DNA of 44,433 nucleotides, taken from NCBI GenBank assembly GCA_044225505.1, contig JBGAIN010000054.1:1-44433 (forward strand), read 5' to 3'. Position 1 is the stretch's first letter. Each line of letters starts with the position of its first letter. Made by a program: the position numbers and the translations under genes. The stretch is from Limisphaerales bacterium. GTDB lineage: Bacteria; Verrucomicrobiota; Verrucomicrobiia; Limisphaerales; SIBE01. Positions 5,824 to 33,971 of this stretch are shown here, piece by piece. The notes below the pieces were generated by a model. That model worked only from the letters and a program-made list of their open reading frames with translations. It was not told the DNA's origin and ran no database searches.

Positions 5824-7407
5824 ATGGGCCTGCTCAACGTTTTTCAACGCGTCTCGCAATCGCCCACAAATCCGCATTCGGCAACGGCGGCGCGTTCGTT
5901 TGACGTGGCTGACCTTTATCGCGGACCCGTTTCCGGACAGACTGACGGTCAAGGCCAGGGCGCTACTGCGTTGGATGAAAAATTACGGCAGGCCTATTTC
6001 TGGATCGTGAACACAGCGATCATTAGTCCCCACTACGATATCGAGTACAATGAAGGCCCGCCCCAGTCCTTCGTGTTGGGTGACAGTCGCAGCCGCTTGG
6101 TCCTGCCATCTGGGCAGTGCTACTCGAGCTTTATACTTTTGCCGCTTCTCACGTTTGCCACACGGCGCAAGTGCCTTTTCGTGGGCGGTCCAGGTCGGGG
6201 CAAGACCGCGAGCGCGATCCTAATGGGAGTCTTGGGAGGCTATTCGGTGCGCGAGGTGCGGCGCGCGATGCAGCATGGTCACCCGCAGATGACGATCGCG
6301 GATCTTCTTGGCAATCCTTTGCCGGCTGACCTGGTCAACGCGCAGCGTATCGAGGACATTCGCATCTCGTGGCGGCAGTGGCTCGGGATGCGAGTCAAAA
6401 TTATTGACGAGTACAACCGGATCCCAACACGGACGCAGAGCGCGTTGCTGACGGTGATGGGCGACAATTACGCGGAAATCCTGAACCACGTCTTTGAGTG
6501 TCCGGACGCAGCTTGGTTTCTGACCGCCAACGATGATCAAGGTGGCGGCACTTACCAGGTCATCGAGGCGCTGCGCGACCGTATCGACGTCGTTGTCCAG
6601 GCTCTCGCATTCAATTCCCGCTTTCTCGGGGATCTGCTCACCCGCATCGAGGAAAACATTCGTCCGGAGGAAGTGGTGCCTCGCCAGATCGTATTCGCCG
6701 ATTCGGAAGTGGACCGTATGCAGGAGGAAATTCGCGCCGTTGCTGTCCCGTCCGAGGTTCGGCGCCGGTTGGAGTTTTTCGCAAGCCAATTTGAGTTTTG
6801 CGAAGTCGCTGCAGAGCAATTCGAGTATAAGACCAAGGATACCGTGCGTCTGTCCGGCATCGAATGGCACACGATTTCGTCGCAGGAAACGGGCCGCGAC
6901 CGTCTGAAAGACATTGGTTGCCAAACGAAGAATGGCCTGTCCGTTCGCGTGTTGATGACGCTGCTGGTTTATGCAAAGGCCCTTGCTTACTTCCGCGGCA
7001 ACCGGATAGTGGATTTGGAAGACCTGCGACAGATTCTTCCGTTCGTGTTGCACGATAAACTCGTCCCGGATTTTGAGGCTCCGTTCTTCGATGCCCCAGG
7101 CCAAGCGGTCTTTCGCACCGACCGCATTGGTTGGCTGAGGAAGATCTTCGACCTAGCAGGCGCTGACTATAACCGGCTCGACTGTGATCGCGAAGATCCG
7201 GTGGCTGAATTGGCAGCGGAGTTTCGCCTCGGCTTGGACGGATTGAGCGAAGGCGACACGCGCAGTCGGTTGGTTCGAATCGAGCGGCTAATTGGCGATT
7301 GGTCGAAAGGGAGGAAGCTTTACGGTCATCTTTACGATGATCTGCTCAAACTTAAATACCTCCACCAACGCTACACCAACTACCTGCGGTGGCTTAAAAC
7401 CCAGTGA
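5824..7407 (+). CDS. MoxR-like AAA+ ATPase with N- and C-terminal extensions
   Basis: Walker A GGPGRGKT, Walker B KIIDEYNR, TQSALL, sensor-1 LTAN, GTY..EALRDR arginine finger, LSVR sensor-2 region. Confidence 0.88.
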   Translation: MGLLNVFQRVSQSPTNPHSATAARSFDVADLYRGPVSGQTDGQGQGATALDEKLRQAYFWIVNTAIISPHYDIEYNEGPPQSFVLGDSRSRLVLPSGQCYSSFILLPLLTFATRRKCLFVGGPGRGKTASAILMGVLGGYSVREVRRAMQHGHPQMTIADLLGNPLPADLVNAQRIEDIRISWRQWLGMRVKIIDEYNRIPTRTQSALLTVMGDNYAEILNHVFECPDAAWFLTANDDQGGGTYQVIEALRDRIDVVVQALAFNSRFLGDLLTRIEENIRPEEVVPRQIVFADSEVDRMQEEIRAVAVPSEVRRRLEFFASQFEFCEVAAEQFEYKTKDTVRLSGIEWHTISSQETGRDRLKDIGCQTKNGLSVRVLMTLLVYAKALAYFRGNRIVDLEDLRQILPFVLHDKLVPDFEAPFFDAPGQAVFRTDRIGWLRKIFDLAGADYNRLDCDREDPVAELAAEFRLGLDGLSEGDTRSRLVRIERLIGDWSKGRKLYGHLYDDLLKLKYLHQRYTNYLRWLKTQ

Positions 7408-7432
7408 TGCCGTCCTGGGCCAGGCGCGACCA

Positions 7433-8458
7433 ATGCCTATGGTAAGTCCAACGCTGACATCCATACTTCGTTCGGGTCGGACCGAGTTCAACGCGCGCTT
7501 TGCCGCGGCCCGCCGCCTTTATCCGGACCTCGATCCCGGAGCATTCTCAAGCTTCATGCAAACGGGCATCGACGATCTGGTGTGCGCCGTGGCCAAAGTC
7601 CGGGCTGAACAGGCCGGTGCAGTCGCGCTCGCAGCGTATGATGCGGGCCTCGCGCTAGTCGGCCAAAAGTTGATGGGACCCAGCGCCCGCAGCTCCGTCT
7701 TAGAGGAAGGCTGGCGCCGCATCCTGCCGCAGATCGCAACCCTTGTTGCGAGTGGGGCGGGGCGTTTAATTCCCGCAGTCTGCAATGCGCTTCATCAACT
7801 TGTGTCCACCCCGACCGCCCGGCCGAAGCAGTGGATTGATCTGGTCGAGCAACTCGGGCCACAATGCGTCGATCTTGATAGTTTTCTAAGACTTGGCCAG
7901 GTCTGTGCCTGGCGAGCTGGTCTGGCGCATTTTCGCCATGGCGCCTTGCTGGCTGCCGACGCTTTGCCGGAGGCTATGGCTTTGACCATCGTCGGTGCCA
8001 AGCCTCATACAACGTGGAGAGAGACACGAGCCCAGTTAGTGGCCAGCCCTTGGTTCGATCCCGCAAATCCGGTCCAGGATGCGTCGCTCGTCCGGGTCGC
8101 GTCTCAAGTTGGTGCCTTCCGCGGTTTTGGAGGGCTGTTCGTAGAACCGCCCACCGTGGCGGCCATCCAACAGGATTTCTTGGTCCGAGCTAACGGCGAT
8201 TGTTGGTTACTCAAAGCGGATGCGTTTGGCGCAACATTTCATCGAGCTTCCGTCGGCGACTTCGAGGCTGCCGCAAAACAGGTTCAGCTTCCTCCGGGAC
8301 TTAGGTTAAGCGGCGGCACCGTTCTCGTCCATGGCGCCCGATGCGAGCTCCCTCCTCTCGGCGAGATCACTAGCGCTGCGGGCAATGACACGACTCTCTC
8401 CCTGACGTTTTCTCTAACCCACTCTGTGGTGCTCGTTGCGCTAAAGGGGAACGGATGA
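7433..8458 (+). CDS. Hypothetical protein (helical N-terminal region, beta-rich C-terminal region with GAFRGFGGLFVEPP)
   Basis: Fills the gap between the ATPase and vWA genes, and its stop overlaps the next start (ATGA 8455-8458). Start placed at ATG 7433 (7439 possible). Confidence 0.8.
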   Translation: MPMVSPTLTSILRSGRTEFNARFAAARRLYPDLDPGAFSSFMQTGIDDLVCAVAKVRAEQAGAVALAAYDAGLALVGQKLMGPSARSSVLEEGWRRILPQIATLVASGAGRLIPAVCNALHQLVSTPTARPKQWIDLVEQLGPQCVDLDSFLRLGQVCAWRAGLAHFRHGALLAADALPEAMALTIVGAKPHTTWRETRAQLVASPWFDPANPVQDASLVRVASQVGAFRGFGGLFVEPPTVAAIQQDFLVRANGDCWLLKADAFGATFHRASVGDFEAAAKQVQLPPGLRLSGGTVLVHGARCELPPLGEITSAAGNDTTLSLTFSLTHSVVLVALKGNG

Positions 8459-10248
8459 AACCGCCAAAGTTGCCTACGTCCGACCTTGGAATGCTACAGA
8501 CTGAGTGGCTGGCGGTTTGGCCATCCGCCTTGGCCGCATGGAGCAAGTTTACCCGGCTCCGCCCCCCTCGGTTGTGTGTGACCGACCTCGAGGCGAAGAA
8601 CGAGGGGCTTGCCGGTAGCTTTGCCATGATCCGGTTGCAGGACCAGGCGATCGTCGTCAGCTTGCCGCGTGTTGCTTCGTGCCACGTGGAACGGTTTGCG
8701 CTCGAGATCCTGGCTCATGAAATTGGCCATCATGTCTTAGCTCCCGCGACTTTGGTTGAGCACGGTCGAATGATCGCGCGCATGCGCTGGGCGCTGCCGA
8801 CAGTGGAGAAGCATGCTCCGATGGTTGCCAACCTTTACACCGATTTGCTAATCAATGACCGCCTGCAGCGCAGCGCTCAATTGCGTATGGCGGATGTCTA
8901 TCGAACTCTCGCCGTTGCAGGAGAGGGTGGTGCGGTGTGGGCGCTCTACACGCGCATTTATGAGATCCTTTGGAGTCTGGAGAGAGGCTCGCTTGGCGGT
9001 GGAAAGACAGATGACCGAAGCGAAGGGGATGCGGTTCTTGGCGCGCGCTTGGTGCGCAATTATGCCACCGATTGGCTGGACGGTTCGGGGCGGTTTGCGG
9101 CATTACTGTTGCCGCATCTGATGGAGGATGCGAAGTCCGCGCGCATTTTTGAGAAGTGGCTCGACACGCAGGCTGCCGGCGCGGGTGGGGACCTGACCGG
9201 TCTGGTTGAAGCAGAAACAGGCGAGCGAGAAGGAGCTGTGCATCCCGCTCAGGATGCGTCGTTGTCGGATTTGCTAGATGGTGCGGAGCCAAGCGAGGAC
9301 GGAAACGCCTTGCCAATCGACACGCCGCAAAACCTTCCTGGTCGAGGACAGGCGCGTGAGCCTTTTCAGTTCGGTGAGATCCTTCGAGCGATGGGGATCC
9401 AAATTGCTGATCATGCGGCGGCGGTCCGATACTACCGTGAACGCGCGCGTCCCTATCTGATTCCCTTTCCCAGTCAGCCGACTCCCGTAGGCACCGAACC
9501 GCTTCCGGAAGGATTGGAGCCCTGGCAGATCGGAGACGCATTCGACATGGCGGACTGGTTCCAATCGGTTCTGCAGAGTCCTCGCGTCGTTCCCGGCCTC
9601 ACCACGGTGCAGAGAGTGTGGGGCATGTCGGAAAGCCAGGAACCCAAACGCCAGCCGCTCGACCTCGATCTTTACGTCGACAGTTCGGGATCGATGCCCA
9701 ATCCACAACGATATACCTCCTTTCCCGCGTTAGCCGGCGCTATCCTCGGGATTTCTGCTTTGCGCGCCGGTGCCCGCGTCCAAGCGACGCTCTGGAGCGG
9801 TAAGCGCCAGTTCGTTTCCACGCCAGGTTTCGTGCGTGATGTCGACTCCGTGTTGGGAGTGCTCACCGGTTATTTCGGAGGTGCCACTGCGTTCCCCATT
9901 CATATCCTTCGCGAAACATACGGTGCCCGAAAGGGGGACGCTCGGCCTACTCATATTCTGGTGATTTCCGACGACGGTATATCGACCATGTTTGACGCCG
10001 ATGAACGGGGCAAATCCGGGTGGGAAGTCGCCGCCATGGCGCTCAGGAAGGCTGCTGGAGGAGGAACGCTGGTTTTAAATCTACCCTCAACCTGGGAGGC
10101 CCAACAAGGCCCCTGTGCTGCCATCCGGCGCGCTCGGAATGAACAGGGCTGGACCGTGTGTCGGGTCGCGTCTTTGGAGGATCTCGTGGAATTCGCGCGC
10201 AACTTTAGCCACCTTCGCTATGGCCCAAGTTCGGGCGCTCAAAGGTGA
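8455..10248 (+). CDS. HEXXH metallopeptidase-like domain fused to a C-terminal vWA domain
   Basis: LAHEIGHH (HEIGH at 8716-8730) plus NLYTDLLIND; acidic Gly/Pro-rich linker; MIDAS YVDSSGS (DSSGS at 9679-9693), GGAT, ILVISDD. Confidence 0.87.
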   Translation: MKPPKLPTSDLGMLQTEWLAVWPSALAAWSKFTRLRPPRLCVTDLEAKNEGLAGSFAMIRLQDQAIVVSLPRVASCHVERFALEILAHEIGHHVLAPATLVEHGRMIARMRWALPTVEKHAPMVANLYTDLLINDRLQRSAQLRMADVYRTLAVAGEGGAVWALYTRIYEILWSLERGSLGGGKTDDRSEGDAVLGARLVRNYATDWLDGSGRFAALLLPHLMEDAKSARIFEKWLDTQAAGAGGDLTGLVEAETGEREGAVHPAQDASLSDLLDGAEPSEDGNALPIDTPQNLPGRGQAREPFQFGEILRAMGIQIADHAAAVRYYRERARPYLIPFPSQPTPVGTEPLPEGLEPWQIGDAFDMADWFQSVLQSPRVVPGLTTVQRVWGMSESQEPKRQPLDLDLYVDSSGSMPNPQRYTSFPALAGAILGISALRAGARVQATLWSGKRQFVSTPGFVRDVDSVLGVLTGYFGGATAFPIHILRETYGARKGDARPTHILVISDDGISTMFDADERGKSGWEVAAMALRKAAGGGTLVLNLPSTWEAQQGPCAAIRRARNEQGWTVCRVASLEDLVEFARNFSHLRYGPSSGAQR

Positions 10249-11231
10249 GATCAATAGAAAGCATGGTCGTTGTTTGGCGAATTACCCAGCGCTGCAATTT
10301 AAGTTGTCCGTTTTGTGCTTACGATCGAACCAACGCTTGGCCGCGGCGCGAGGCTGACGCTGCGCGTATTCGGCGCTTTGGCGCTGTCTTGGCCGAATAC
10401 CAGAGTGTTACAGGGTGCTCCGTGCTCGTCAGTTGGCTGGGCGGCGAGCCCTTTCTCTTTCCAGGCTTGCAGGATTTGACTGCTTTCTTCGCGACTCAGC
10501 TCGGCCTCCGGGTCAGCATCACATCCAACGGAACAACTCTCGACTCCGCCCATGTGCGTGAACACATTTGCGCCCACTATTCAGAACTAACCATTAGCGT
10601 CGACGGGATTGGCTCCGTCCACGACGAGTTACGCGGATGGCCAGGTGCTTACGCCAGCTTGCGCAACGCTATCAGCGCCCTCGCTGAGACCAAGCGTCAG
10701 GACGGCCGCGGGCCGCGGCTGCGTGCCAATGTTGTCTTGATGCGCCAAACCCTCGCCCGCTTTGAGTCGCTTTGCGTCGAACTCGCCGATTGGGGCATCG
10801 AAGAAATTACTTACAACCAACTGGGAGGCCGGGATCGGCCATCGTTCTTTCCATCCCATCGACTGCTGCCTGAACAAACTGCCTGGCTTCTCCGCGAAGT
10901 CCCCCGAATCCGTCTTCATTTGGCAGCACGGCACGTGTCGCTGAACGGAAGCGAGAACTATCTTCGTCGTATTCAAGCCAGCAGCCGTGACGAAACAATT
11001 CTGGTTTCAGAGTGTCGTCCGGGGCGGCAGTTTCTGTTTGTGAACGAGAATGGGATTGTTTCTCCGTGCAGTTTCACGACGCGAGAGTATGGAGTCGCTC
11101 TGGAAGAGCTGGATAGTCTTGCCTCTTTGCGAGAGCTGCCGATGCGCTGGGCGGACCAACGGCGTGAAAGGCGCTCCGTTGCTTGCGAAGATTGCCATAG
11201 CACCCATGTTTTTGAGAAGTTTGGACTATAA
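10245..11231 (+). CDS. Radical SAM protein with Twitch/SPASM-like C-terminal domain
   Basis: CNLSCPFC (CxxxCxxC), LGGEP, SNGT, ISVDG..HDELRG; auxiliary cysteines in ECRPG...SPCSF...CEDC. GTG start overlaps the upstream TGA. Confidence 0.92.
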   Translation: MRSIESMVVVWRITQRCNLSCPFCAYDRTNAWPRREADAARIRRFGAVLAEYQSVTGCSVLVSWLGGEPFLFPGLQDLTAFFATQLGLRVSITSNGTTLDSAHVREHICAHYSELTISVDGIGSVHDELRGWPGAYASLRNAISALAETKRQDGRGPRLRANVVLMRQTLARFESLCVELADWGIEEITYNQLGGRDRPSFFPSHRLLPEQTAWLLREVPRIRLHLAARHVSLNGSENYLRRIQASSRDETILVSECRPGRQFLFVNENGIVSPCSFTTREYGVALEELDSLASLRELPMRWADQRRERRSVACEDCHSTHVFEKFGL

Positions 11232-11234
11232 GCA

Positions 11235-11819
11235 ATGGACACCGAAGGCCCAATTCTGGAAACACTGACACGCCGCCTGGCCGAGACGCCGGAAGAATTC
11301 CTGGGCGAGCCTCGCATCGGCGGAACAGGCCAAGTGCACGTAGCGGCGGTCGCGGGCGACCTGCTTCGTGCTTTGGGAGCGTCTCCGGATGCCAAGTCAC
11401 TCTCTGTCTTCACCGGACGTGACCCGCAACGAGATAGGAATCGACTGGCATTGACGCTCCTCCTCTCCTGGCTGTTGGGCGACGATTGGTTTCAGCAAAC
11501 GAAACACGACGCCCGCAAATTGTTCTGTCTGCTAGATGCCGAAGCCGCGGAATTGGCACTGCAAACTGCCGCGCGACGCTTTGTGACTGATCCCGAACGG
11601 CGTGAGGAATTAGCGCGTTTTACTTTGGCGCAGCTCGGTTTTCGGCCTGCGGGAGAAACTCTCGCTCAAGCTCAAGATCGGTTAACGACTTTGAGCTCCG
11701 CGGAACGCGCTCGCGTGATTAAGGCTGCCCAGACAGCGGAATTGCGGGCCAGGCAAATCCGTGAAGCTCTCGCTCGCAAGGCTGCCGATGAATCTGCAGA
11801 CAAATGGACGCGCGAATAA
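11235..11819 (+). CDS. Hypothetical all-alpha protein, 194 aa
   Basis: Starts 3 nt after the radical SAM stop and overlaps the next gene. Contains DPERREELAR and a charged helical tail (RARQIREALARKAADESADKWTRE). Confidence 0.8.
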   Translation: MDTEGPILETLTRRLAETPEEFLGEPRIGGTGQVHVAAVAGDLLRALGASPDAKSLSVFTGRDPQRDRNRLALTLLLSWLLGDDWFQQTKHDARKLFCLLDAEAAELALQTAARRFVTDPERREELARFTLAQLGFRPAGETLAQAQDRLTTLSSAERARVIKAAQTAELRARQIREALARKAADESADKWTRE

Positions 11820-13171
11820 TAGACGACAGTATTTCAATTGGGGCGCGTTACCCGACATTAACGGATGCCGGGCACCAGATGCTCCATTTCCTGCGAGAGC
11901 ATCCACATGCTCCTATCTTTCGCAATGAAAGCGGCAATCGCCTGACAGCGGAGGATGTCGCGGAGGTGCGCGCTTTTGAGCGTCAAGTCGAGCAAGCGCC
12001 TATTGGCTGGTCTCCAGGCGAACTTCCCACCTGGATTCACGATTTCCTGGAATGGGCGCTGGCCGATGTACCTTTCTACCGACGTTACGGATCGGTCCCG
12101 AGCCACCTTCACCATTTGCCAACGATTTCACGAGCGGATTTAAGCCGTGACATCACGCAATTCGTGCCCGACTCGCTTCCCATCGATCGGTTGGTGAACT
12201 ACCGCACAAGCGGTACAACGGGGCATCCGTTGTTGCTGGCATCCCATCCGGTCGTGGCCGCAAACTACTTAGCATTCCATAAGCGCGCCTTGCGCCGTGT
12301 CGGAATCGATTTGCGCCACGGTCGAGGACAAGTGGGAGTTGTCCTGGTCGGATTCCAACGGACGTGTTTCACGTATGTTTCTGTGACTCCCACTATGGAC
12401 GAGTCCGGTTTAGCCAAGATCAATCTCCACCCAGCGGACTGGCGCGATCCGGCAGACCGAGTGGAATACCTCGATGCATTGTCGCCCGAAATATATACTG
12501 GAGATCCGATCGCGTTCGCTGAATTGGCTAAATTGCCGTTGCGAAAGTCTCCACGCGCCATGCTTTCCACGTCCATGACATTACTCCCGGCAATGCGGCA
12601 GCGGCTTGAGCAGCGGTTCGGATGTCCCGTGCTGGATCTCTATTCTATGAACGAAGCGGGCCCGGTGGCTGTCCAAGATGCGACCGCTGGCGGGCACGTC
12701 TTATTGCAACATCGCCTCTATCTGGAGATCTTGGATGAAAAGGGCTGCCCGCAGCCGCCGGGGAAACGTGGAGAGGTGGCTCTCACAGGTGGTTTCAACA
12801 CCTATCTGCCGTTGATTCGGTATCGAACAGGTGACTATGCCCACTTGCGCTTTTATGGGAACGAACCGGTGTTGATTGGCTTGGAAGGGCGGCTGCCAGT
12901 TCGGTTCCGCACTGTCCACGGTGAATGGCTTAACAACATCGAAGTGACCCATGCGCTTCGTCGGTTTGCTTTCCCTCAGTTTACCCTTCACCAGGACTCT
13001 GACGGCAGACTTTGCCTTCGACTGGGCCAAGGCATTCAGGAGGGCGGCGTCCGCGACACCCTTCTCGAGTTGTTCGGTCCTGAGCAAAGGCTGAGCATCG
13101 AAGTAGTGCCTGACTTCGATGGGAAGATTGTCCAGTACACGTCGGCCCTGGAACATTCATTTCTGGCTTAG
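11804..13171 (+). CDS. Phenylacetate-CoA ligase / CapK-like adenylate-forming enzyme
   Basis: VPFYR, LPTISRADL, TSGTTG P-loop, YSMNEAG, GEVALT, PLIRYRTGD, LEGR. Confidence 0.88.
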   Translation: MDARIIDDSISIGARYPTLTDAGHQMLHFLREHPHAPIFRNESGNRLTAEDVAEVRAFERQVEQAPIGWSPGELPTWIHDFLEWALADVPFYRRYGSVPSHLHHLPTISRADLSRDITQFVPDSLPIDRLVNYRTSGTTGHPLLLASHPVVAANYLAFHKRALRRVGIDLRHGRGQVGVVLVGFQRTCFTYVSVTPTMDESGLAKINLHPADWRDPADRVEYLDALSPEIYTGDPIAFAELAKLPLRKSPRAMLSTSMTLLPAMRQRLEQRFGCPVLDLYSMNEAGPVAVQDATAGGHVLLQHRLYLEILDEKGCPQPPGKRGEVALTGGFNTYLPLIRYRTGDYAHLRFYGNEPVLIGLEGRLPVRFRTVHGEWLNNIEVTHALRRFAFPQFTLHQDSDGRLCLRLGQGIQEGGVRDTLLELFGPEQRLSIEVVPDFDGKIVQYTSALEHSFLA

Positions 13172-13504: not shown

Positions 13505-15457
13505 GTGTGCGGAATCGCGGGATATAAGAATTTGGATGGTCGCCCGATCGATCAATCTTTACTAACAAGGATGGTCGCAGGCGTGTCGCATCGCGGGCCG
13601 GACGGCCAGGGCTTCTTCTTGGACGAGAAAGCCGGGGTTGGTCTTGCCCACGCGCGGTTGGGCATTATCGACCTTCAGACCGGACAGCAACCGATCGGAA
13701 ACGAAGATGGAACTGTGGTCGTCGTGGCCAACGGGGAAATTTTCAATTACATCGAATTACGTCGCGACTTGGCGGCTCAGGGCCATATTTTTAAAACACA
13801 GTCCGACATCGAAACGATCGTCCATCTCTACGAGGAGTATGGCGAAGACTTGGTACACCAACTGAACGGTCAATTCGCATTCGCTCTTTGGGATGGGCGG
13901 CGCAGGCGATTAATGCTGGTTCGAGATCGGCCTGGAATTCTGCCGCTGTTCTATTGCCAAACGCCCAGTCGGCTCGCGTTCGGGTCAGAGATCAAATCTT
14001 TGCTGCCCGCGTTGGACTCGGTTCCGGCAATGAATCCCGATGCTTTGGCCGAGATTCTCACTTATTGGGCGCCAGTCTCGCCCGGCACAGCTTTCAAAGG
14101 CATCTTCGAAGTGGAGCCCGGCCAAATGCTTTGCCTGGATTCCGCGGCTGACGCTCCCGTTCGCAAAAGAAAATATTGGAATTGGATGCTGGCTAGTTCG
14201 AGCGAGTGCCGCAGCGCCTCGGATTCTACTGGGAAGCTTCGGCTGGCGGAAGAACTCTACGGGCTACTCGACGATTCGGTTCGCATTCGCCTGCGCGCTG
14301 ACGTTCCGGTTGGGGTCTACATTTCTGGGGGACTGGATTCCTCGGTGTTGGCCGCCCTCGTGCGCAAGAGACAAGAGTCGGTGACAGCCTTTTGCGTTGG
14401 ATTCGAAGACAAAGAGCTTGATGAGGGCCCTTACCAGGACGAAGTGGCGAAGTCGCTATCGATTGATGCCAGTCGGGTGGTGTGCAAGGCGAAGGATATC
14501 CGGGAGCGTTTTCTGCAATGTGTCGAAGCTTGCGAGGTTCCGATCACCCGGGCCGCGCCCGTGCCGATGTTCCTTTTGTCGGAACGCGTTTCAAAGTCAG
14601 GCTGCCGCGTTGTCCTAACGGGCGAAGGGGCCGATGAGGTTCTTGGTGGCTATGGACTGTTCCAAGAGGCCAAAATCCGTGCGTTCTGCGCTCGGTTTCC
14701 GGACAGTTCGATGCGGTCGGCGCTATTCAAGCGACTTTATCCTGATCTGAACGTGACTCGGGGGCAGTCCGTGCGCACGCTGAAGTCGTTTTTCGCAAGC
14801 GGCGATTCCGTGGAGTCTCCTTATTTCTCTCATTTCAACCGGTGGAAGACCGGAGCCTGGGCGTGTGGTTTCTTAACTGCGCGCTTTCGGACTGCTCCAA
14901 GCTATACTTCCGTCGCCAGCGTCAGGCCAGCGGAACTGGCTCAGATTCCGCTTCTTTCGCGCGCCCAACTGTTGGAAGTGAAGACTTTCATGGCGCCGTA
15001 CTTGTTGTCATCGCAGGGAGATCGCATGTTGATGGCGCACGCTGTGGAGGGGCGCTTTCCTTACTTGGATCATCGAGTCATTGAGTTCGCCAATGCCTTG
15101 GACCCCAGGCTTAAAATGAGAGGACTCATCTCCAAATACTTGCTTCGCACCGTTGGCGCCCGATTGGTTCCTCCCGCGGTGCTTAACCGGCCGAAGCACG
15201 CCTACCGGGCGCCAGACGCGGAGGCTTTTTGCGCCGTTCCCAGGCCAGACTATGTCCACGAGTTGCTGAGTGACAGAACGATCGAGGAATACGGCTACTT
15301 CGACAGTAAAAGGGTTGCGCAACTCGATCGAAAGATTCAGGCGGCTGTTTCCGGGAGGACTCCTGTGAGCCATCGAGAAAGCTTGCTCTGGATGACGGTG
15401 CTATCTACTCAAGCGTGGCACTTTCGCTTCCAAATCAAGAAATACGGAGTTTCATGA
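13505..15457 (+). CDS. asnB: Asparagine synthase (glutamine-hydrolysing)
   Basis: GTG start with MCGIAG (Ntn Cys), HRGPD, NGEIFN, SGGLDSS PP-loop, LTGEGADE, VEGRFPYLD. Confidence 0.95.
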   Translation: MCGIAGYKNLDGRPIDQSLLTRMVAGVSHRGPDGQGFFLDEKAGVGLAHARLGIIDLQTGQQPIGNEDGTVVVVANGEIFNYIELRRDLAAQGHIFKTQSDIETIVHLYEEYGEDLVHQLNGQFAFALWDGRRRRLMLVRDRPGILPLFYCQTPSRLAFGSEIKSLLPALDSVPAMNPDALAEILTYWAPVSPGTAFKGIFEVEPGQMLCLDSAADAPVRKRKYWNWMLASSSECRSASDSTGKLRLAEELYGLLDDSVRIRLRADVPVGVYISGGLDSSVLAALVRKRQESVTAFCVGFEDKELDEGPYQDEVAKSLSIDASRVVCKAKDIRERFLQCVEACEVPITRAAPVPMFLLSERVSKSGCRVVLTGEGADEVLGGYGLFQEAKIRAFCARFPDSSMRSALFKRLYPDLNVTRGQSVRTLKSFFASGDSVESPYFSHFNRWKTGAWACGFLTARFRTAPSYTSVASVRPAELAQIPLLSRAQLLEVKTFMAPYLLSSQGDRMLMAHAVEGRFPYLDHRVIEFANALDPRLKMRGLISKYLLRTVGARLVPPAVLNRPKHAYRAPDAEAFCAVPRPDYVHELLSDRTIEEYGYFDSKRVAQLDRKIQAAVSGRTPVSHRESLLWMTVLSTQAWHFRFQIKKYGVS

Positions 15458-15714
15458 AGGATCACCGGCAGACCATCCGAAGTTTTATTCTGGAGAATTT
15501 TCTGTTTTCTGACGACGAATCCGAACTGAGAGACTCCGATTCGTTTCAGGCGACGAGGATCATCGATTCCATGGGCATGATGGAGTTGATTCACTTCATT
15601 GAGAAAATCGCTGGAATCAAGATTCCCGACGAGGAAATGAGCCCAGAACACCTCGATTCCGTAGATCGGATCGTTCAATATATCGAGGGGAAGTCGCAAG
15701 GCAGACGCGAATGA
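15454..15714 (+). CDS. Acyl carrier protein
   Basis: Small acidic protein (MKDHRQTIRSFILENFLF...IIDSMGMMELIHFIE) with a DS phosphopantetheine site. ATGA overlaps on both sides. Confidence 0.92.
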   Translation: MKDHRQTIRSFILENFLFSDDESELRDSDSFQATRIIDSMGMMELIHFIEKIAGIKIPDEEMSPEHLDSVDRIVQYIEGKSQGRRE

Positions 15715-17231
15715 TCAAAGACGGTCCAACCGTAGTGCATTTTTTGGCTGAATCGGTCCGGCGCTTTCCTGATCGGCAAGCCATGGTCTACCAAGGAAAG
15801 TCTACCACTTACGCCGAACTTTGGAGCGCGATGACGGCGTTCACCCAACACATTCAATCCACCGGACTGACTCCTGGCGACCGTATCGCCATCGTGATTC
15901 CCAACTCGCTTGAGTACGTGGCGGCGAGCTACGGAACTATGGCTGCGCGAGGGGTAGTGGTGGGGCTGAGCGCGGAGGCAATAGCTGCCGAGAACTTGCG
16001 TCTCATTCGACATTGTGGTGCCTCCATGGTCATTCTTTCGGACAACTATCTCGAAGCACCAAGGCTCGCACGCGAGTTGGAAGAAACCGTGCGACTGCTG
16101 CGCGTATCCGAAGTAGCGTGTCTTAAGCGGACGGCGGCATTGGACCGCTTGCCGACGCGGCATGAACTTGCCGCGATTGTTTATACATCTGGGACGACCG
16201 GAGCGCCAAAGGGCGTGATGATCAGCCACGGCAACCTAGCGAGCAATACCGAATCCATCTTGAGTTACCTGTCCCTTTCGCCTCAGGACCGGGTTTTGTG
16301 CGTCTTGCCATTCTCTTACGCATATGGGAGTTCGGTGCTGCACACGCATTTGGCGGCGGGTAGTTCCGTGGTGGTCGAAGATGGTCTTTTATATCCTGAA
16401 TTGGCCATGCGCGCGTTGATCGAACAGGGGGTAACCGGTATTGCCGGTGTGCCCTGGATGCTGGCACGTCTGCTGAACTTCCGTCAGTTCAACAGTGAAT
16501 CGATTCGAACACTCCGTAGCGTCACCCAGGCGGGAGCGCCGATGCCTGCAGCTACGATCGACCGTCTTTGTGAGCGTTTCCCGGAAATGCAGTTCTTCGC
16601 GATGTATGGCCAAACCGAAGCGACCGCGCGACTGACCTATTTGCCACCCAGGGACGTGAGACGAAAGCGCGGGTCGGTAGGCGTGGCCATTCCTGGCGTC
16701 ACTCTGGAAATCCGACGTGACGATGGAACTCGCGCTGTCCTGAACGAAACGGGCGAGGTCTTTGCGACTGGCCCTAATATCATGGAGGGTTATTGGAACG
16801 CACCCGAGGCGACAGCCCGAGTAATCAGCTGCGAACCCACCGGACGCTGGCTTCGGACTGGGGACATGGGACGGCTTGACGAGGACGGGTATCTCTATCT
16901 AGTCGGGCGCAATACAGAGTTGATCAAGACCGGAGCGCATCGGGTTAGCCCCCTGGAAATCGAGGAAGCGGTTACGCAGTTGAAAGGAGTCGCGGAAGCC
17001 GTGGCGTTCGGGATTTCCGATCCTGCCCTGGGCGAGGCGATCGTGCTAGCCGTCGTGAAGGAAAAACACGCGGGGCTGGACGAGCGAACGGTTCTCCGTC
17101 ACTGTCGCCTCAATCTCAGCCAGCATAAGATTCCTCGACACATTCTGTTTCTGGAGGGCTTGCCCAAGACCGCTAATGGCAAACCTCGGCGAAAAGACTT
17201 GAATGAGCTTATTGCGCAAAAGTTGTCTTGA
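15711..17231 (+). CDS. AMP-binding acyl-CoA/acyl-ACP ligase
   Basis: YTSGTTGAPKG, YGQTEAT, RTGD, GR, PKTANGK. Confidence 0.93.
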   Translation: MIKDGPTVVHFLAESVRRFPDRQAMVYQGKSTTYAELWSAMTAFTQHIQSTGLTPGDRIAIVIPNSLEYVAASYGTMAARGVVVGLSAEAIAAENLRLIRHCGASMVILSDNYLEAPRLARELEETVRLLRVSEVACLKRTAALDRLPTRHELAAIVYTSGTTGAPKGVMISHGNLASNTESILSYLSLSPQDRVLCVLPFSYAYGSSVLHTHLAAGSSVVVEDGLLYPELAMRALIEQGVTGIAGVPWMLARLLNFRQFNSESIRTLRSVTQAGAPMPAATIDRLCERFPEMQFFAMYGQTEATARLTYLPPRDVRRKRGSVGVAIPGVTLEIRRDDGTRAVLNETGEVFATGPNIMEGYWNAPEATARVISCEPTGRWLRTGDMGRLDEDGYLYLVGRNTELIKTGAHRVSPLEIEEAVTQLKGVAEAVAFGISDPALGEAIVLAVVKEKHAGLDERTVLRHCRLNLSQHKIPRHILFLEGLPKTANGKPRRKDLNELIAQKLS

Positions 17232-18171
17232 CCTCGATTTCAAACAAGAAGCAGAGCGTATTGCTGGACGTTTGAGGGAGGTTCTCCGCTGGGAATTGCG
17301 GCGTCGAGGACTCGTGATCGCCGTTTCTGGGGGAATCGACAGTTCTGTTTGCGCCGCCTTGGCTGTCAAGGCGATTGGCCCAGGTAAGGTTTTACTCCTG
17401 TCACTACCAGAGGCAGACAGTTCACCGCGAAGCGAGAAACTAGGGCGCCAATTGGCGGAACATTTGGGAGCGCCCTATTTGGTCTGCAACATCGAACCAG
17501 CGTTGCAAGGAATTGGATGCTATGAGGAACGGGACAACGCGATCCGGCGGCTGTTTCCCGCTTATGGAAACGGCTGGAAGAGCAAGATTGCGATTGCCGG
17601 CGGATTGGACGGACGCTATAGCAGTTTTGATCTCGTTGTCCAGGACCCGCACGGATGTGAGACGAAACGGAGGCTACCGCCGGCTGAATGCCTTCAAATC
17701 ATCGCCGCTACCAATCATAAGCAGCGTATTCGAGCCGCTATCACCTATTATCATGCCGACCGGAAACAATATGCCGTGGTCGGGACGCCCAACCGGTTGG
17801 AGTATGATCAGGGGTTCTTCGTTAAGAACGGCGACGGAGCGGCTGATGTTAAACCGATCGCCCACCTTTACAAAACCCAGGTCTACGGCCTAGCGCGGTA
17901 CCTTGGACTGCCAGATGAAATCTGCGCGGCAGTTCCTACGACCGATACCTACAGTCTTCCTCAGGGCCAGGACGAATTCTATTTCGCGCTGCCTTACGAG
18001 CAAATGGATTACGCGCTGTGGGCGCATGATCATGGGGTCTCGGAAAATGAACTCGGCGCGTTTGTGCGGGTGAGCGCGGACCAAGCCGCGAAGATCTATC
18101 GCGAGATCGAAAACAAAAGAGCAGCGACGCGCTATTTGCACCTGCCGCCTGTTTTGGTGCAGGAGGGATGA
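17203..18171 (+). CDS. nadE: NH3-dependent NAD+ synthetase-like protein (cluster-associated paralogue)
   Basis: SGGIDSS PP-loop, NHKQRIR, GTPNRLE, GFFVKNGDG, PIAHLYKTQVY, PTTDTYS...QDE. Confidence 0.85.
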   Translation: MSLLRKSCLDLDFKQEAERIAGRLREVLRWELRRRGLVIAVSGGIDSSVCAALAVKAIGPGKVLLLSLPEADSSPRSEKLGRQLAEHLGAPYLVCNIEPALQGIGCYEERDNAIRRLFPAYGNGWKSKIAIAGGLDGRYSSFDLVVQDPHGCETKRRLPPAECLQIIAATNHKQRIRAAITYYHADRKQYAVVGTPNRLEYDQGFFVKNGDGAADVKPIAHLYKTQVYGLARYLGLPDEICAAVPTTDTYSLPQGQDEFYFALPYEQMDYALWAHDHGVSENELGAFVRVSADQAAKIYREIENKRAATRYLHLPPVLVQEG

Positions 18172-18905
18172 TGGACTACCGCTCCGGCTTCTTATTCAAC
18201 CGACGCGGGAAGCAGATTTTCAATGCTCGGGCAGGAGCCCCGGACAGTCCGGAGGTGTGGGTGATCTGTCCGCCATTCTTTGAGGAAGGGGTTGTGACGC
18301 ATGACATCCTGCGCAATTTCGCGCGCAAAACCGCCGAGCATGGCGCACTCGCTGTAAGGTTTGACTACGAAGGCACGGGCGACAGCGAAGGGACGCTCGA
18401 GCAAGTCGGTCTGGACGAATGGGTGAACGACGCACTTGATATAGTCAGGTCGATTCAAACCGAGTTCCCGCGGCGGACGACGTGTTTTCTTGGAATTCGA
18501 GGGGGGGCGTGGGTCGCCAGTCGCGCTGCCCTGCAAACGCCTGGAGCAAGGGTGACAGCCTGGCATCCCATCGAGAGTGGAGAGGAGTACTTCCGCGAGT
18601 TGCTGCGATTTAATCTGACGGCGCAGCTCTCGGCGTGGCATAACGTGCGATCTTCGCGTGAAGACTTGATTAAGAAAATGGAGGCAGGAGGAACAGTAAA
18701 CGTGCTGGGATGGGACCTAACCGCAAAGTCGGTGAGAGCAATGCGCTCGAGTGTGTTTTCGGAAATGGCCGCCCTGTTGGGCAGCCGCATGCGGGTTTTG
18801 CTGTCCGGGGGGCGCCCCTTTTGGCACGACCCGCGCCTAGTGGATTTTGACCAAGAGGAACTGGTTAACAGCACCCTCCATGACAAAGGAGATCAAGCCC
18901 GTTGA
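18168..18905 (+). CDS. Alpha/beta hydrolase-fold protein (resembles exosortase A system-associated hydrolase 2)
   Basis: CPPFFEE, RFDYEGTGDSEG, nucleophile elbow GIRGG, WHPIESG. Confidence 0.78.
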   Translation: MMDYRSGFLFNRRGKQIFNARAGAPDSPEVWVICPPFFEEGVVTHDILRNFARKTAEHGALAVRFDYEGTGDSEGTLEQVGLDEWVNDALDIVRSIQTEFPRRTTCFLGIRGGAWVASRAALQTPGARVTAWHPIESGEEYFRELLRFNLTAQLSAWHNVRSSREDLIKKMEAGGTVNVLGWDLTAKSVRAMRSSVFSEMAALLGSRMRVLLSGGRPFWHDPRLVDFDQEELVNSTLHDKGDQAR

Positions 18906-19792
18906 CGCCGAGCTATCGTGAGTTGACGCTCGAGTATTCAGTCCGCGACGGCGGGATGGGACGGGGGATCGTGTGCGAGCCGGTCGCGAGAGCATCGCGG
19001 GCTACTCTGGTCCTGCTCTCGGCTGGGCTAAAGTATCGGGTTGGTCCGGGTCGGCTCTATGTCGAACTCGCCCGGCACTTTGCTCAAGAAGGGTTCCGGG
19101 TGATCAGGGCGGATCCGTCTCAGATTGGCGAAAGCGACGGTCGTTTGGAGTCGGCGCCGATCCAGGAGATCTGGAACACAATCGAACGCGGCCGCTTTGT
19201 TGACGATGGGATCGCCCTGATTGGAGCTTTGCGTCAGAAATGTGGGGAAGGGCCGATTTTTGTCTCCGGCCTGTGCGGAGGTGCGGTCACGGCGGAAGTG
19301 ATCGCACATGCCAAACCTAGACTCGTGCAAGGAGTCGTAGCCCTGAATCCGGCAATCACTCTTTCGACGGGATCCGGTCGCCCTGTTCGGGCGGTGGCGA
19401 AGGCGAATGCTAGAACTTACGTGAAAAGGCTGGTGTCTCCGTTCGCCTGGCAGCGGCTGCTTTCAGGCATCAGCAATTACCGTTTGATGTGGGCTACGGC
19501 CCGAACCATGCTCGGAACGGTTCCTCAAGGTGTGAATCCCTTGTACTTTTCAGCGTTGCAGAGCGCGCTGTCGGCCAAGATTCCCCACCTGCTCATTTTT
19601 GCCGAAAACGATGAGCGCTGGCATGAGTTTAAAGACTTGATCTTGAAACAGGCTTGGGAAGAACGCTCGAACGGCGATAGTTATCAGATCTGCGTCGTGC
19701 CGGAAGCGAATCATGAATTCCACTGGCGGCCCTGGCGAGAGGCTTTGGCCCGACATTTTCTCGAATGGGCGCACATGGTGGCTAACGTATGA
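18902..19792 (+). CDS. Alpha/beta hydrolase-fold protein (resembles exosortase A system-associated hydrolase 1)
   Basis: YRVGPGRLYVELAR, IGESDG, elbow GLCGG, FAEND, ANHEF. TTG start overlaps the upstream TGA. Confidence 0.8.
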   Translation: MTPSYRELTLEYSVRDGGMGRGIVCEPVARASRATLVLLSAGLKYRVGPGRLYVELARHFAQEGFRVIRADPSQIGESDGRLESAPIQEIWNTIERGRFVDDGIALIGALRQKCGEGPIFVSGLCGGAVTAEVIAHAKPRLVQGVVALNPAITLSTGSGRPVRAVAKANARTYVKRLVSPFAWQRLLSGISNYRLMWATARTMLGTVPQGVNPLYFSALQSALSAKIPHLLIFAENDERWHEFKDLILKQAWEERSNGDSYQICVVPEANHEFHWRPWREALARHFLEWAHMVANV

Positions 19793-20811
19793 CCAGAACG
19801 TTTACCATGCCATTTCGGCCTTTGGGGGCGTCGGGACACAGCGTCAGTGCCTTCGGCCTTGGAGGGTGGAATACGTTTGGCACGAAGTTGCGCACGGTCC
19901 GGGAGGTCGGTGCGGTGATCCGGGCAGCCCTCGATTCCGGCATTAATCTTTTCGACACCGCAGATTCGTATGCTGGAGGCGAGTGTGAAAGACTGATGGG
20001 CCAAGCCTTGCACGGGACAGATCGATCCAAGTGGGTTCTCTGCACGAAAGTGTTTTTCCCACTAAACCCCGGTTCAACGGAGAGCGGGCTTTCTAAACAG
20101 CACATTCTCGCGTCGATTGATGCCTCCTTGCAGAGATTGAACGTTGATTATGTGGACGTCTACTTCTGTCATCGCCCCGATCCGAATACACCGCTCGCGG
20201 AGACAATTCAAACCATGCACGATCTGGTCCGGGTAGGGAAAATCCGCTGTTGGGGCACGAGCGAATGGAGCCCTCGCCGAATCCGGGCGGCATGGGGCAT
20301 CGCGAAGCAGCTGGGACTGGAAGGTCCGAAGGTCGAGCAGCCTCAATATAGCCTTTTAACGCGTGGGAATTTCGAAAGGCGGATCGCGCCCTGTCTCCGA
20401 TACCATGGAATGGCGGCAATGGTCTGGAGCCCTTTAGCCTCCGGCGTGTTGACCGGCAAATATGATAACGATCTGCCGCTTGGCAGCAGGCTTGAGCAAA
20501 TCGGTTGGCTGCGTGAGGAAATCCTCAGTGCGCGCAGTCTGGAGCAGGTTCGGCGGATGAAGACCACTGCGACCGCCACGGGGTGTTCGAGAGCCGAACT
20601 GGCATTGGCCTATCTGCTGGCGTGTTCGAGTGTTTCCTCGGTCCTGCTCGGCGCGTCGTCCGTGGATCAACTGCAAAGCAATCTCGGCGCTTTGCGGGTG
20701 GACATGACAGAGGACCTGAAAGCACAACTCCGGGCTCTGTTTAAAGTTCCCGTGACTGAAACTATCAAAGTTTTCCTCCGTTCGATTTTTCGCCGGGAGC
20801 AGATCGTGTGA
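19789..20811 (+). CDS. Aldo/keto reductase (Kv-beta/Tas-like)
   Basis: FDTADSY, CTKVF, SLQRLNVDYVD, HRPD, WGTSEW, WSPLASGVLTGKY. Confidence 0.93.
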   Translation: MTRTFTMPFRPLGASGHSVSAFGLGGWNTFGTKLRTVREVGAVIRAALDSGINLFDTADSYAGGECERLMGQALHGTDRSKWVLCTKVFFPLNPGSTESGLSKQHILASIDASLQRLNVDYVDVYFCHRPDPNTPLAETIQTMHDLVRVGKIRCWGTSEWSPRRIRAAWGIAKQLGLEGPKVEQPQYSLLTRGNFERRIAPCLRYHGMAAMVWSPLASGVLTGKYDNDLPLGSRLEQIGWLREEILSARSLEQVRRMKTTATATGCSRAELALAYLLACSSVSSVLLGASSVDQLQSNLGALRVDMTEDLKAQLRALFKVPVTETIKVFLRSIFRREQIV

Positions 20812-33961: not shown

Positions 33962-33971
33962 CCTGATTTGT

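Follow-up and report, generated by a model that had tools for sequence, protein, structure and literature searches.

A widely conserved, uncharacterised cassette of MoxR ATPase, HEXXH-vWA protein and adenylating ligase in a Limisphaerales bacterium, and its frequent association with NAD-salvage genes

The six-gene cassette and its distribution

The window analysed here is the whole 44,433-nucleotide (nt) stretch of contig JBGAIN010000054.1 (assembly GCA_044225505.1), from a bacterium of the order Limisphaerales in the phylum Verrucomicrobiota. Listing of its open reading frames (ORFs) revealed six co-directional ORFs on the + strand at positions 5824-13171, hereafter the cassette. The first, g1 (5824-7407), encodes a MoxR-like AAA+ ATPase of 527 amino acids (aa); it is followed by g2 (7433-8458, from the ATG at 7433 of a frame open from 7292), coding for an orphan protein of 341 aa, and by g3 (8455-10248), whose 597-aa product combines a zincin motif (HEXXH) with a von Willebrand factor A (vWA) domain carrying a metal ion-dependent adhesion site (MIDAS). 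Next come g4 (10245-11231), for a radical SAM enzyme of 328 aa, g5 (11235-11819), for a second orphan of 194 aa that is the predicted partner or substrate of the last product, and g6 (11804-13171), for a PaaK-like adenylating ligase of the ANL type with 455 aa. From g1 to g6 the junctions are a 25-nt gap, an ATGA, a GTGA, a 3-nt gap and a 16-nt overlap. Since 8 of 12 g4 homologues begin at the residue aligned with Met7, the ATG at 10263 is a possible, indeed likely, true start of g4, which may turn the GTGA overlap into a 14-nt gap. Inspection by eye recognised no signal peptide at any of the six N-termini. A sequence-only reading of this DNA had already proposed these gene calls, domain labels and junctions and the lack of obvious signal peptides; all of them hold, with the caveat on the g4 start, and Pfam and NCBIfam models back the labels given to g1, g4 and g6.

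The cassette is a genuine, widely conserved and uncharacterised operon. A scan of one genome per species with g3 gave 17 loci and a metagenome scan gave 80, out of 126 relatives found; the 97 loci in total collapse, at 97% or more identity of g3, to 82 that are non-redundant. All loci were seeded with g3, so that the counts cover g3-bearing cassettes only, and the denominators differ from one count to another because metagenome contigs are short. The sequence-only reading had made its case depend on synteny in other genomes, and such synteny is found: the gene order seen by tblastn is common to most of the 17 genome and 80 metagenome loci. Indeed, 82 non-redundant loci spread over several phyla repeat this set of genes and its order, which places the arrangement far beyond chance. 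Of the 46 loci that have at least 2.8 kb of sequence before g3, 45 contain g1 and 44 contain g2. Among the 51 loci whose sequence extends at least 2 kb beyond the end of g3, 48 have g5; it is missing in L008, L080 and the degenerate L090, and the genome of L008 carries a g5 about 12 kb away on the same contig.

The radical SAM gene behaves differently from what the sequence-only reading had assumed in treating it as a fixed member of the operon. It occurs in 40 of the 52 loci holding both g3 and g6, and is truly missing despite ample flanking sequence in L035, L055, L067, L073, L082 and L098; among the rest of the 12 loci lacking it, some lie on short contigs, and g4 could be located past the contig end. 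Thus g4 is an accessory member, and the core of the cassette consists of g1-g2-g3 plus g5-g6, often extended by a PnuC-NadR pair that is absent from the window. In Chloroflexi-type loci the genes are re-ordered as g3-g5-g6-g4. Small genes of the PDDEXK_3 family (PD-(D/E)XK) stand between cassette genes of this type (L034:2486-2923, L085:8490-8933 and L085:12519-12974), and a DUF6483 gene lies between g5 and g6 in L035 and L012; the g5-g6 junction is the one interrupted, by one or the other of these families, in L034, L085 and L035. They look like independent insertions.

The 17 genome loci belong to Verrucomicrobiota, Gemmatimonadaceae (Gemmatimonadota), delta-type proteobacterial metagenome-assembled genomes, Geobacteraceae, KSB1, Eisenbacteria and several Chloroflexi. 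Within the phylum of the window the distribution is sparse, the cassette being present in 2 of 401 sampled genomes, with that of the window counted; no match was found in 2.9 million viral contigs, 50,697 phage records and 72,556 plasmids. The sequences are well conserved: mean column identity of the components is 58-66%, and tblastn identity between the window and the other loci is 55-73% for g3, reaching 70-84% for g1 against homologues of other phyla. In an unrooted tree of g3 with few taxa, the Chloroflexi form a well supported clade and the two Verrucomicrobiota rows are not monophyletic, a topology that fits mostly vertical descent within clades together with some transfer. The organism of the window itself recurs in bioreactor and activated-sludge metagenomes.

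In agreement with the sequence-only reading, which knew of no characterised system of this kind, no curated family, PADLOC model or searched paper describes the cassette. Release 20 of NCBIfam contains no model for g1, g2, g3 or g5, and the full-text literature searches made returned no description of the operon. The search for regulatory elements was equally negative: Rfam at gathering scores gave no riboswitch or other RNA in the window and five further loci, palindrome and 8-mer scans of 45 regions upstream of g1 gave nothing recurrent that could represent a shared operator, and promoter and terminator scans remained at the level of shuffled sequence (3 vs 2.9 and 11 vs 9.0, respectively).

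The proteins and the predicted g5-g6 complex

The g1 product belongs to the MoxR family by a narrow margin: Pfam AAA_3 (PF07726) scores 29.0 bits against a cut-off of 27, covering only profile positions 37-129, and AAA_lid_2 (PF17863) 26.0 bits against 22.7; Walker A (GGPGRGKT, residues 121-128, nt 6184-6207) and Walker B (IIDE, 193-196) are both present. The ATPase core is flanked by extensions of about 110 aa at the N-terminus and 100 aa at the C-terminus. Its sole match in the PDB is 2r44 (E 2e-5), and none of the 18,950 NCBIfam models matches it.

The orphan g2 has an AlphaFold2 (AF2) model of high confidence, with a predicted local distance difference test (pLDDT) score of 92.2, consisting of a helical N-domain (about residues 1-216) and a beta-rich C-domain (about 221-336); the latter contains the invariant motifs GFGG and ADxFGATxHR. 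No match was obtained in Pfam, NCBIfam, PADLOC or PDB sequences, a PDB profile search included, which gave chance-level rows or none, and an Atlas search gave no usable match. At the structural level, Foldseek on the PDB found nothing at E<=1e-3, and a VIA-wide comparison found only partial beta-propeller blades, the best with Z 8.1 over 109 residues, which is within the commonly seen range. The protein is nonetheless widespread and conserved: a profile search recovered 1345 representatives of clusters at 50% identity with E<=1e-3, the best 150 spanning 251-403 aa, and its mean column identity is 58%.

In the g3 product, the N-terminal part carries HEIGHH (residues 88-93, nt 8716-8733), unchanged like E118 in all 15 sequences compared, and the C-terminal part carries the MIDAS motif DSSGS at 409-413 (nt 9679-9693), with all five ligand positions (D409, S411, S413, T478 and D506) invariant in 15 of 15 sequences. 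No Pfam, NCBIfam or PDB sequence match was obtained, the VWA models of Pfam not reaching this protein; however, hhalign against a profile of nine vWA sequences from the same genome gave a probability of 58% and an E-value of 9.9e-5 over 101 columns, with the motifs in register. By its invariant ligands and this alignment, the C-terminal part qualifies as a vWA/MIDAS domain. The corresponding comparison with Peptidase_M48 aligned 23 columns around the HEXXH helix (probability 33%) and, because the alignment is confined to that helix, the peptidase assignment stays at the level of the motif. Thus, of the metallopeptidase-vWA fusion proposed from the sequence, the vWA half is confirmed and the metallopeptidase half is a putative one. 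Atlas neighbour clusters of g3 contain Peptidase_M48 in 18% and VWA_2 in 10-20% of their members. Of 8000 candidates scored with a g3 profile, at least 3208 clusters reached E<=1e-3, with names that are either hypothetical or 'VWA domain-containing', and some homologues bear the latter name at NCBI. Two further features were observed. An invariant Cys41 (8575-8577) lies in an RPPxLC motif, 47 residues before HEXXH, and a latency role of the 'cysteine-switch' kind, or a metal role, is conceivable; moreover, a conserved loop, GEREGAxHPxxD (about residues 256-270, 9220-9260), precedes a variable acidic linker at about 270-297.

The accessory g4 product is a member of the radical SAM superfamily (PF04055, 48.1 bits against a cut-off of 29.5), with a CX3CX2C motif at residues 17-24 (nt 10293-10316) whose cysteines C17, C21 and C24 are kept by all 13 sequences. 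Four more invariant cysteines, C257, C275, C314 and C317, occur in the C-terminal part, and their conservation suggests an auxiliary cluster. Three SPASM families of NCBIfam align up to about residue 320 with scores far below their cut-offs (for anSME, 41.4 against 349), and Pfam gives no SPASM match; in the PDB, SkfB is matched (E 1.1e-11).

The g6 product is recognised by the Pfam AMP-binding model (39.7 bits against 29.9) and its best PDB match is PaaK (PaaK1, 2y27, E 3e-9). The P-loop TSGTTGHP (residues 135-142, nt 12206-12229), YSMNE (280-284), YRTGD (340-344) and K441 are invariant in 13 of 13 sequences, and an N-terminal extension of about 100 aa is specific to the family. Its scores are far below the equivalog cut-offs of the PaaK models TIGR02155 (36.5 against 646.3 bits) and NF041878 (37.1 against 700) and of the DVU_1553 family NF045666 (93.1 against 300), so that g6 is PaaK-like and not a PaaK. 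It shares with PaaK and PaaK-like ligases (2y27, 6siw, 6wuq) the P-loop, the YxxxE and YRTGD motifs and the C-terminal lysine, and differs from PaaK in its additional N-terminal domain and in its predicted substrate, which would be the C-terminus of a protein and not a small aryl acid.

The candidate for such a substrate is g5. Its AF2 model (pLDDT 87.2) shows a helical globule (residues 1-153) followed by a long C-terminal helix (155-193), which ends in a conserved tail, ...ADKWTRE-COOH (178-194, nt 11766-11816). All 55 complete homologues end in R-[E/D], with R-E before the stop in 51 and R-D in four. Three of the 55 have R or Q in place of the lysine at -4, which argues for the terminal carboxylate, rather than the lysine, as the reactive group. 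No family match was found in Pfam, NCBIfam, PADLOC or PDB sequences; for the fold, Foldseek on the PDB gave a best E of 0.57 and VIA a best Z of 5.3, within the commonly seen range, and a search for fusions in longer proteins returned one uninformative protein of 382 aa.

Co-folding, a check proposed in the sequence-only reading, placed the g5 tail at the ANL motifs of g6. The three predictions of the complex gave ipSAE scores (interaction prediction scores from aligned errors) of 0.82, 0.81 and 0.83, against 0.45 for the best control; by a rough calibration, the mark used is attained by 116 of 157 solved complexes and by 2 of 215 mismatched pairs. The runs share at least 89% of their contacts, and the pLDDT of the scored partner, g5, is at least 86. 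Residues 168, 171-172 and 174-176 and all of 178-194 make up the g5 side of the predicted interface (span 168-194). On g6 it comprises 279 and 281-283, the latter in YSMNE, 254, 256-257 and 179-205, together with the P-loop flanks (130-133, 144-149) and parts of the N-terminal extension (6-15, 41-46, 90-97); stretches 179-205, 254-257 and 279 are those which we take to align with the lining of the phenylacetate pocket of PaaK. Since no solved homologue of g5 was found, the result is unlikely to be the memory of a known complex.

The genomic data point in the same direction. The two genes overlap by 16 nt in the window, remain adjacent or nearly so in the re-ordered Chloroflexi-type loci, and occur twice as a pair within a single cassette in L013 (11833-16637) and L089 (11817-17255), the L013 paralogues being 66% (g5) and 67% (g6) identical. 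Overlap, persistence of the pair after rearrangement, duplication as a unit and the invariant R-[E/D] end, taken with the model, suggest that the g5 C-terminus is most likely the acyl substrate of g6. Binding of the two proteins is probable on the strength of the predicted complex; activation of the g5 terminal carboxylate by g6 is best regarded as an even bet. The tails of the second g5 copies are atypical, ...ARMMRE in L013 and ...MKAMRE in L089.

Neighbouring genes and the NAD-salvage link

Clustering of flanking ORFs exposed two recurrent genes downstream of the cassette, encoding proteins of nicotinamide adenine dinucleotide (NAD) salvage: a PnuC transporter (Pfam NMN_transporter, E about 1e-45 to 1e-49) and a NadR-type protein (CTP_transf_like plus AAA_28). 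They were counted in the 36 non-redundant loci having a complete g6 and at least 1.5 kb of downstream sequence, in the 3 kb after g6: PnuC is found in 21 of these loci, NadR in 22, an ADP-ribosylglycohydrolase in one, and at least one of the three in 23. Of the other 13 loci, L050 carries the PnuC-NadR pair ahead of g1, and in L089 a fragment of NadR lies within the cassette; in L053, PnuC was seen by Pfam and missed by tblastn. PnuC exceeds its NCBIfam equivalog cut-off (71.9 against 42.45), while the NadR-like protein aligns over its full length to TIGR01526 with a score below the cut-off (161.6 against 341). The frequent position of PnuC-NadR directly after g6 suggests that the system is tied to nicotinamide riboside uptake and NAD synthesis.

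In its components this neighbourhood resembles PnuC-NadR salvage, since the genes after g6 encode, in 23 of 36 loci, at least one of PnuC and a full-length NadR-type nicotinamide mononucleotide adenylyltransferase/kinase, and L050 adds the regulator NrtR. The regulons described in the accessible text of Rodionov et al. 2008 (PMC2330246) have PnuC-NadR either by themselves or accompanied by genes of NAD biosynthesis; a linkage to a MoxR/vWA/ligase cassette does not appear in that text, and the score of the NadR-like protein below its cut-off is a further difference.

Genes for ADP-ribose processing are found next to a few cassettes. L050 has the order PnuC-NadR-NrtR-PARG-NADAR-g1...g6 (L050:2224-6129), where NrtR is a NUDIX plus NrtR_WHD protein and PARG is of the microbial type, an arrangement seen only there. 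In L017 and L022, which represent the Verrucomicrobia lineage closest to the window, the order is g6-ARH-PnuC, a DraG-like ADP-ribosylglycohydrolase (ARH) occupying the place of NadR (L017:4403-6063, L022:13186-14846). Because they are confined to two lineages, these neighbours are anecdotes and do not form a pattern. Of 5 cassette genomes, 4 encode NadA, for the de novo route to NAD, indicating that these organisms are not obligate auxotrophs. A complementary pattern with nicotinate/nicotinamide phosphoribosyltransferase was considered and rejected: PF04095 is missing from 14 of 19 cassette genomes, but also from 178 of 201 sampled genomes of the phylum of the window.

The remaining neighbourhood is not conserved. 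In the window, the GH28-like gene upstream and the AsnB-like, acyl-CoA ligase and NadE genes downstream do not accompany the cassette elsewhere, and the 152 flanking ORFs submitted to Pfam scans (48 and 104) correspond to unrelated metabolic, sensor and occasional mobile genes. The NAD(+) synthase located 4 kb downstream of g6 is a clear one (459.8 bits against 313), and its proximity may be a coincidence. It is part of a second tight cluster on the + strand, directly downstream of the cassette (13505-20811) and not conserved beside it in other loci, which also encodes an AsnB-type amidotransferase, an acyl-CoA ligase, whose best NCBIfam row is exosortase-A-associated and below cut-off, two alpha/beta hydrolases and an aldo-keto reductase. 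Further along, positions 26810-36671 of the window contain genes for an RHS-repeat protein of 2383 aa (DUF6531, Big_5 and CarboxypepD_reg in Pfam) and then for a 936-aa protein with Big_5, Big_7, TSP3 and LVIVD domains.

Possible functions of the cassette

MoxR ATPases and vWA proteins form characterised pairs in RavA-ViaA, NorQ-NorD, CbbQ-CbbO and CoxD-CoxE. The cassette resembles them in encoding a MoxR-class ATPase together with a vWA protein having a complete MIDAS; it differs in the N-terminal HEXXH domain borne by g3, in the conserved orphan g2 between g1 and g3, in the lack of any client enzyme gene conserved nearby, and in the locking of the pair to a ligase-carrier module. The closest known kind is thus the MoxR-vWA pair with its multi-gene elaborations, from which the cassette is set apart by the HEXXH-vWA fusion, by g2 and, above all, by the ligase-carrier module and the linkage to NAD salvage.

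We tentatively propose, at somewhat less than even chances, that the cassette combines a protein-C-terminus ligation module (g5, g6 and, where present, g4) with a MoxR/zincin-vWA remodelling module, and that both are tied to NAD metabolism. It would be a self-contained cytoplasmic machine that has spread horizontally. In the ligation module, g6 would dock on g5 through its N-terminal extension and the g5 tail, ...K-x-x-R-[E/D]-COOH, would enter the acyl-substrate site of the ligase; the terminal carboxylate would then be adenylated and joined to a nucleophile, and the radical SAM enzyme, in the loci that have it, would modify the tail or the adduct further. In the second module, g1, g2 and g3 would form an ATP-driven remodelling or processing unit, where the MIDAS of g3 would bind an acidic determinant, possibly the acidic terminus of g5 itself, and cleavage or recycling of the product would fall to the HEXXH domain. 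The NAD-salvage genes would supply or balance a co-substrate of the pyridine-nucleotide type. Because PnuC-NadR follow g6, the acceptor or co-substrate would most likely be a pyridine-nucleotide or ADP-ribose-type molecule, an NAD-derived acceptor being, when judged by itself, rather improbable. Gene content, synteny, conserved motifs, the invariant tail and the NAD-salvage linkage are observations, and binding of g5 to g6 with the tail at the ANL motifs is a model prediction; that the carboxylate is adenylated, what accepts it and what g1, g2, g3 and g4 do are inferences. For the cytoplasmic protein-modification machine imagined in the sequence-only reading, the predicted g5-g6 complex and the invariant g5 C-terminus provide support of an indirect kind.

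Several observations weigh against this proposal. L008 and L080 contain g1-g3 without g4-g6 nearby; a peptidase function of g3 is suggested by its motif only; and the g5-g6 complex is a model obtained from custom alignments, the calibration counts being only rough. We know of no ANL enzyme that activates a protein C-terminus. As for the metabolic link, no component of the cassette resembles an NAD-using enzyme, the window and 13 of the 36 loci have no adjacent PnuC or NadR downstream, and the PnuC-NadR pair of the genome of the window is on another contig; moreover, out of 82 lineages, ARH is found only in L017/L022 and NrtR-PARG-NADAR only in L050.

Among the alternatives, an anti-phage or abortive MoxR-vWA 'ternary' conflict system is unlikely and survives slightly better than the others. 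Here g2 would be the constant third component, ligase, g5 and radical SAM enzyme the effectors, and PnuC-NadR would protect or restore the NAD pool. The order MoxR, third protein, vWA fits the theme of the ternary systems described by Kaur, Burroughs, Iyer and Aravind (2020, PMC7159879), as far as the accessible part of the paper goes. That part also reports one subtype having a standalone radical SAM effector and a vWA domain fused to a helical N-terminal domain, and notes simple FtsH-type systems whose radical SAM enzyme 'likely modifies a peptide-effector'. The patchy distribution, with 2 of 401 genomes in the phylum of the window, the mobile genes near some loci (a relaxase-like TrwC at L017, an rve integrase at L007, a group II intron maturase at L004) and the NADAR/PARG/NrtR neighbourhood of L050 are also in line with conflict. 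However, the radical SAM subtype is defined, in the same part of PMC7159879, by a third component with two FtsH-type AAA+ domains, and no second AAA+ protein exists in the cassette or its conserved flanks; Pfam and NCBIfam likewise recognise no effector domain, the caspase, trypsin, TIR and EAD effectors of ternary systems being absent. The VMAP-type third component is described there as a VMAP-C domain with a rapidly varying middle region; g2, of constant length and with 58% column identity, is unlike such variable regions. An ANL ligase with a g5-like carrier and PnuC-NadR are not mentioned in the accessible part of the paper. The components in general are conserved and not diversifying, with the column identities of 58-66% and the 70-84% of g1 across phyla, the flanks contain ordinary metabolic and sensor genes and no defence islands, and the cassette is absent from the viral, phage and plasmid collections searched. 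In PADLOC-DB v2.0.0, to which the sequence-only reading had referred this question, five of the six proteins have no match and the match of g4 to pVip models is limited to the radical SAM core that they have in common (56.8 bits, residues 8-131), a generic viperin-like hit. The anti-phage half of its stress/anti-phage option thus receives no positive support from PADLOC, the flanks or these collections.

The conserved tail of g5 recalls another kind of system. In LysW/LysX, the amino-group carrier system, and in Pup/PafA, chemistry takes place on the C-terminal glutamate of a carrier protein, and the logic of carrier, ligase, tailoring and release by a metallopeptidase is established for the LysW and PEARL systems. 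The cassette shares with LysW/LysX and Pup/PafA a conserved acidic C-terminal residue, a dedicated ATP-dependent ligase and a metallopeptidase, here a motif-level one, in the operon; conversely, g6 has an ANL fold, neither ATP-grasp nor glutamine-synthetase-like, and g5 is a protein of 194 aa with an unmatched fold and no sequence relationship found. In a scaffold-based synthesis of a small molecule or cofactor following the LysW or PEARL/3-thiaglutamate logic, the C-terminal Glu/Asp of g5 would receive a precursor by ligation, the radical SAM enzyme and g2 would carry out the tailoring, and the g3 zincin would set the product free and so regenerate g5; this product might be related to pyridine nucleotides. 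The invariant acidic end and the predicted tail-in-ligase complex fit a carrier, as does the occurrence in one operon of a ligase, a HEXXH protein and a radical SAM enzyme of the peptide-modifying, SPASM-like type (SPASM maturases, SkfB). Nevertheless, g5 is large and conserved along its full length, unlike the leaders of ribosomally synthesised and post-translationally modified peptides, at least six complete loci have no radical SAM gene, the flanks show no conserved gene for export or additional tailoring, and the need for a MoxR ATPase and a vWA domain is left unexplained. Such a synthesis is, in our opinion, also unlikely, and marginally more so than conflict.

Still less credit is due to a maturation chaperone of the NorQ-NorD, CoxD-CoxE or CbbQ-CbbO type. 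Its task would be the insertion or repair of a metal or cofactor site; the target enzyme could be the radical SAM protein or an NAD-dependent enzyme encoded elsewhere, and g5-g6 would serve as accessories. A MoxR-like ATPase and a vWA protein with intact MIDAS are indeed encoded together, but neither the cassette nor its flanks hold a conserved candidate client gene, cassettes can do without the radical SAM gene, and the HEXXH domain, the invariant g5 tail and the ligase find no explanation. The least probable alternative is tagging by analogy with Pup/PafA/Mpa/Dop, in which g6 would ligate the C-terminal Glu/Asp of g5 to lysines of targets, and g1 and g3 would act on the tagged proteins, by recognition, unfolding and cleavage, or would take the tag off; analogous parts (a helical tail with an acidic end, a ligase, an AAA+ ATPase and a putative metallopeptidase) lie in one operon and the predicted ligase-tail complex fits tag activation, but Pfam, NCBIfam and PDB searches gave no homology to Pup, PafA/Dop or proteasome parts, g5 has a folded domain of 150 residues, and the NAD-salvage linkage is left unexplained.

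The proposal of a C-terminus ligation module coupled to MoxR/zincin-vWA remodelling also admits a bolder form, which is a long shot. In it, g5 would be a new carrier whose C-terminus is esterified or amidated by g6 to a pyridine nucleotide or ADP-ribose-type molecule derived from imported nicotinamide riboside, giving a nicotinamide (or ADP-ribose) group tethered to a protein at the end of a long helical arm; g4 would tailor the adduct, the MoxR/zincin-vWA unit would load, remodel or recycle it, and ARH, PARG or NADAR, where they occur, would strip spent ADP-ribose remnants. If true, g6 would be the first member of the ANL enzymes known to act on the C-terminus of a protein, and the tethered group would represent a covalently bound cofactor or protein mark of a new class.

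The cassette is common and occurs in soil, sediment and sludge bacteria of many phyla; two of its proteins, g2 and g5, nevertheless match no known family or fold. If the predicted pairing of ligase and tail is right, it would extend the ANL enzymes to protein C-termini, define a carrier or tag protein of a new kind, and connect MoxR-vWA machines with NAD metabolism.

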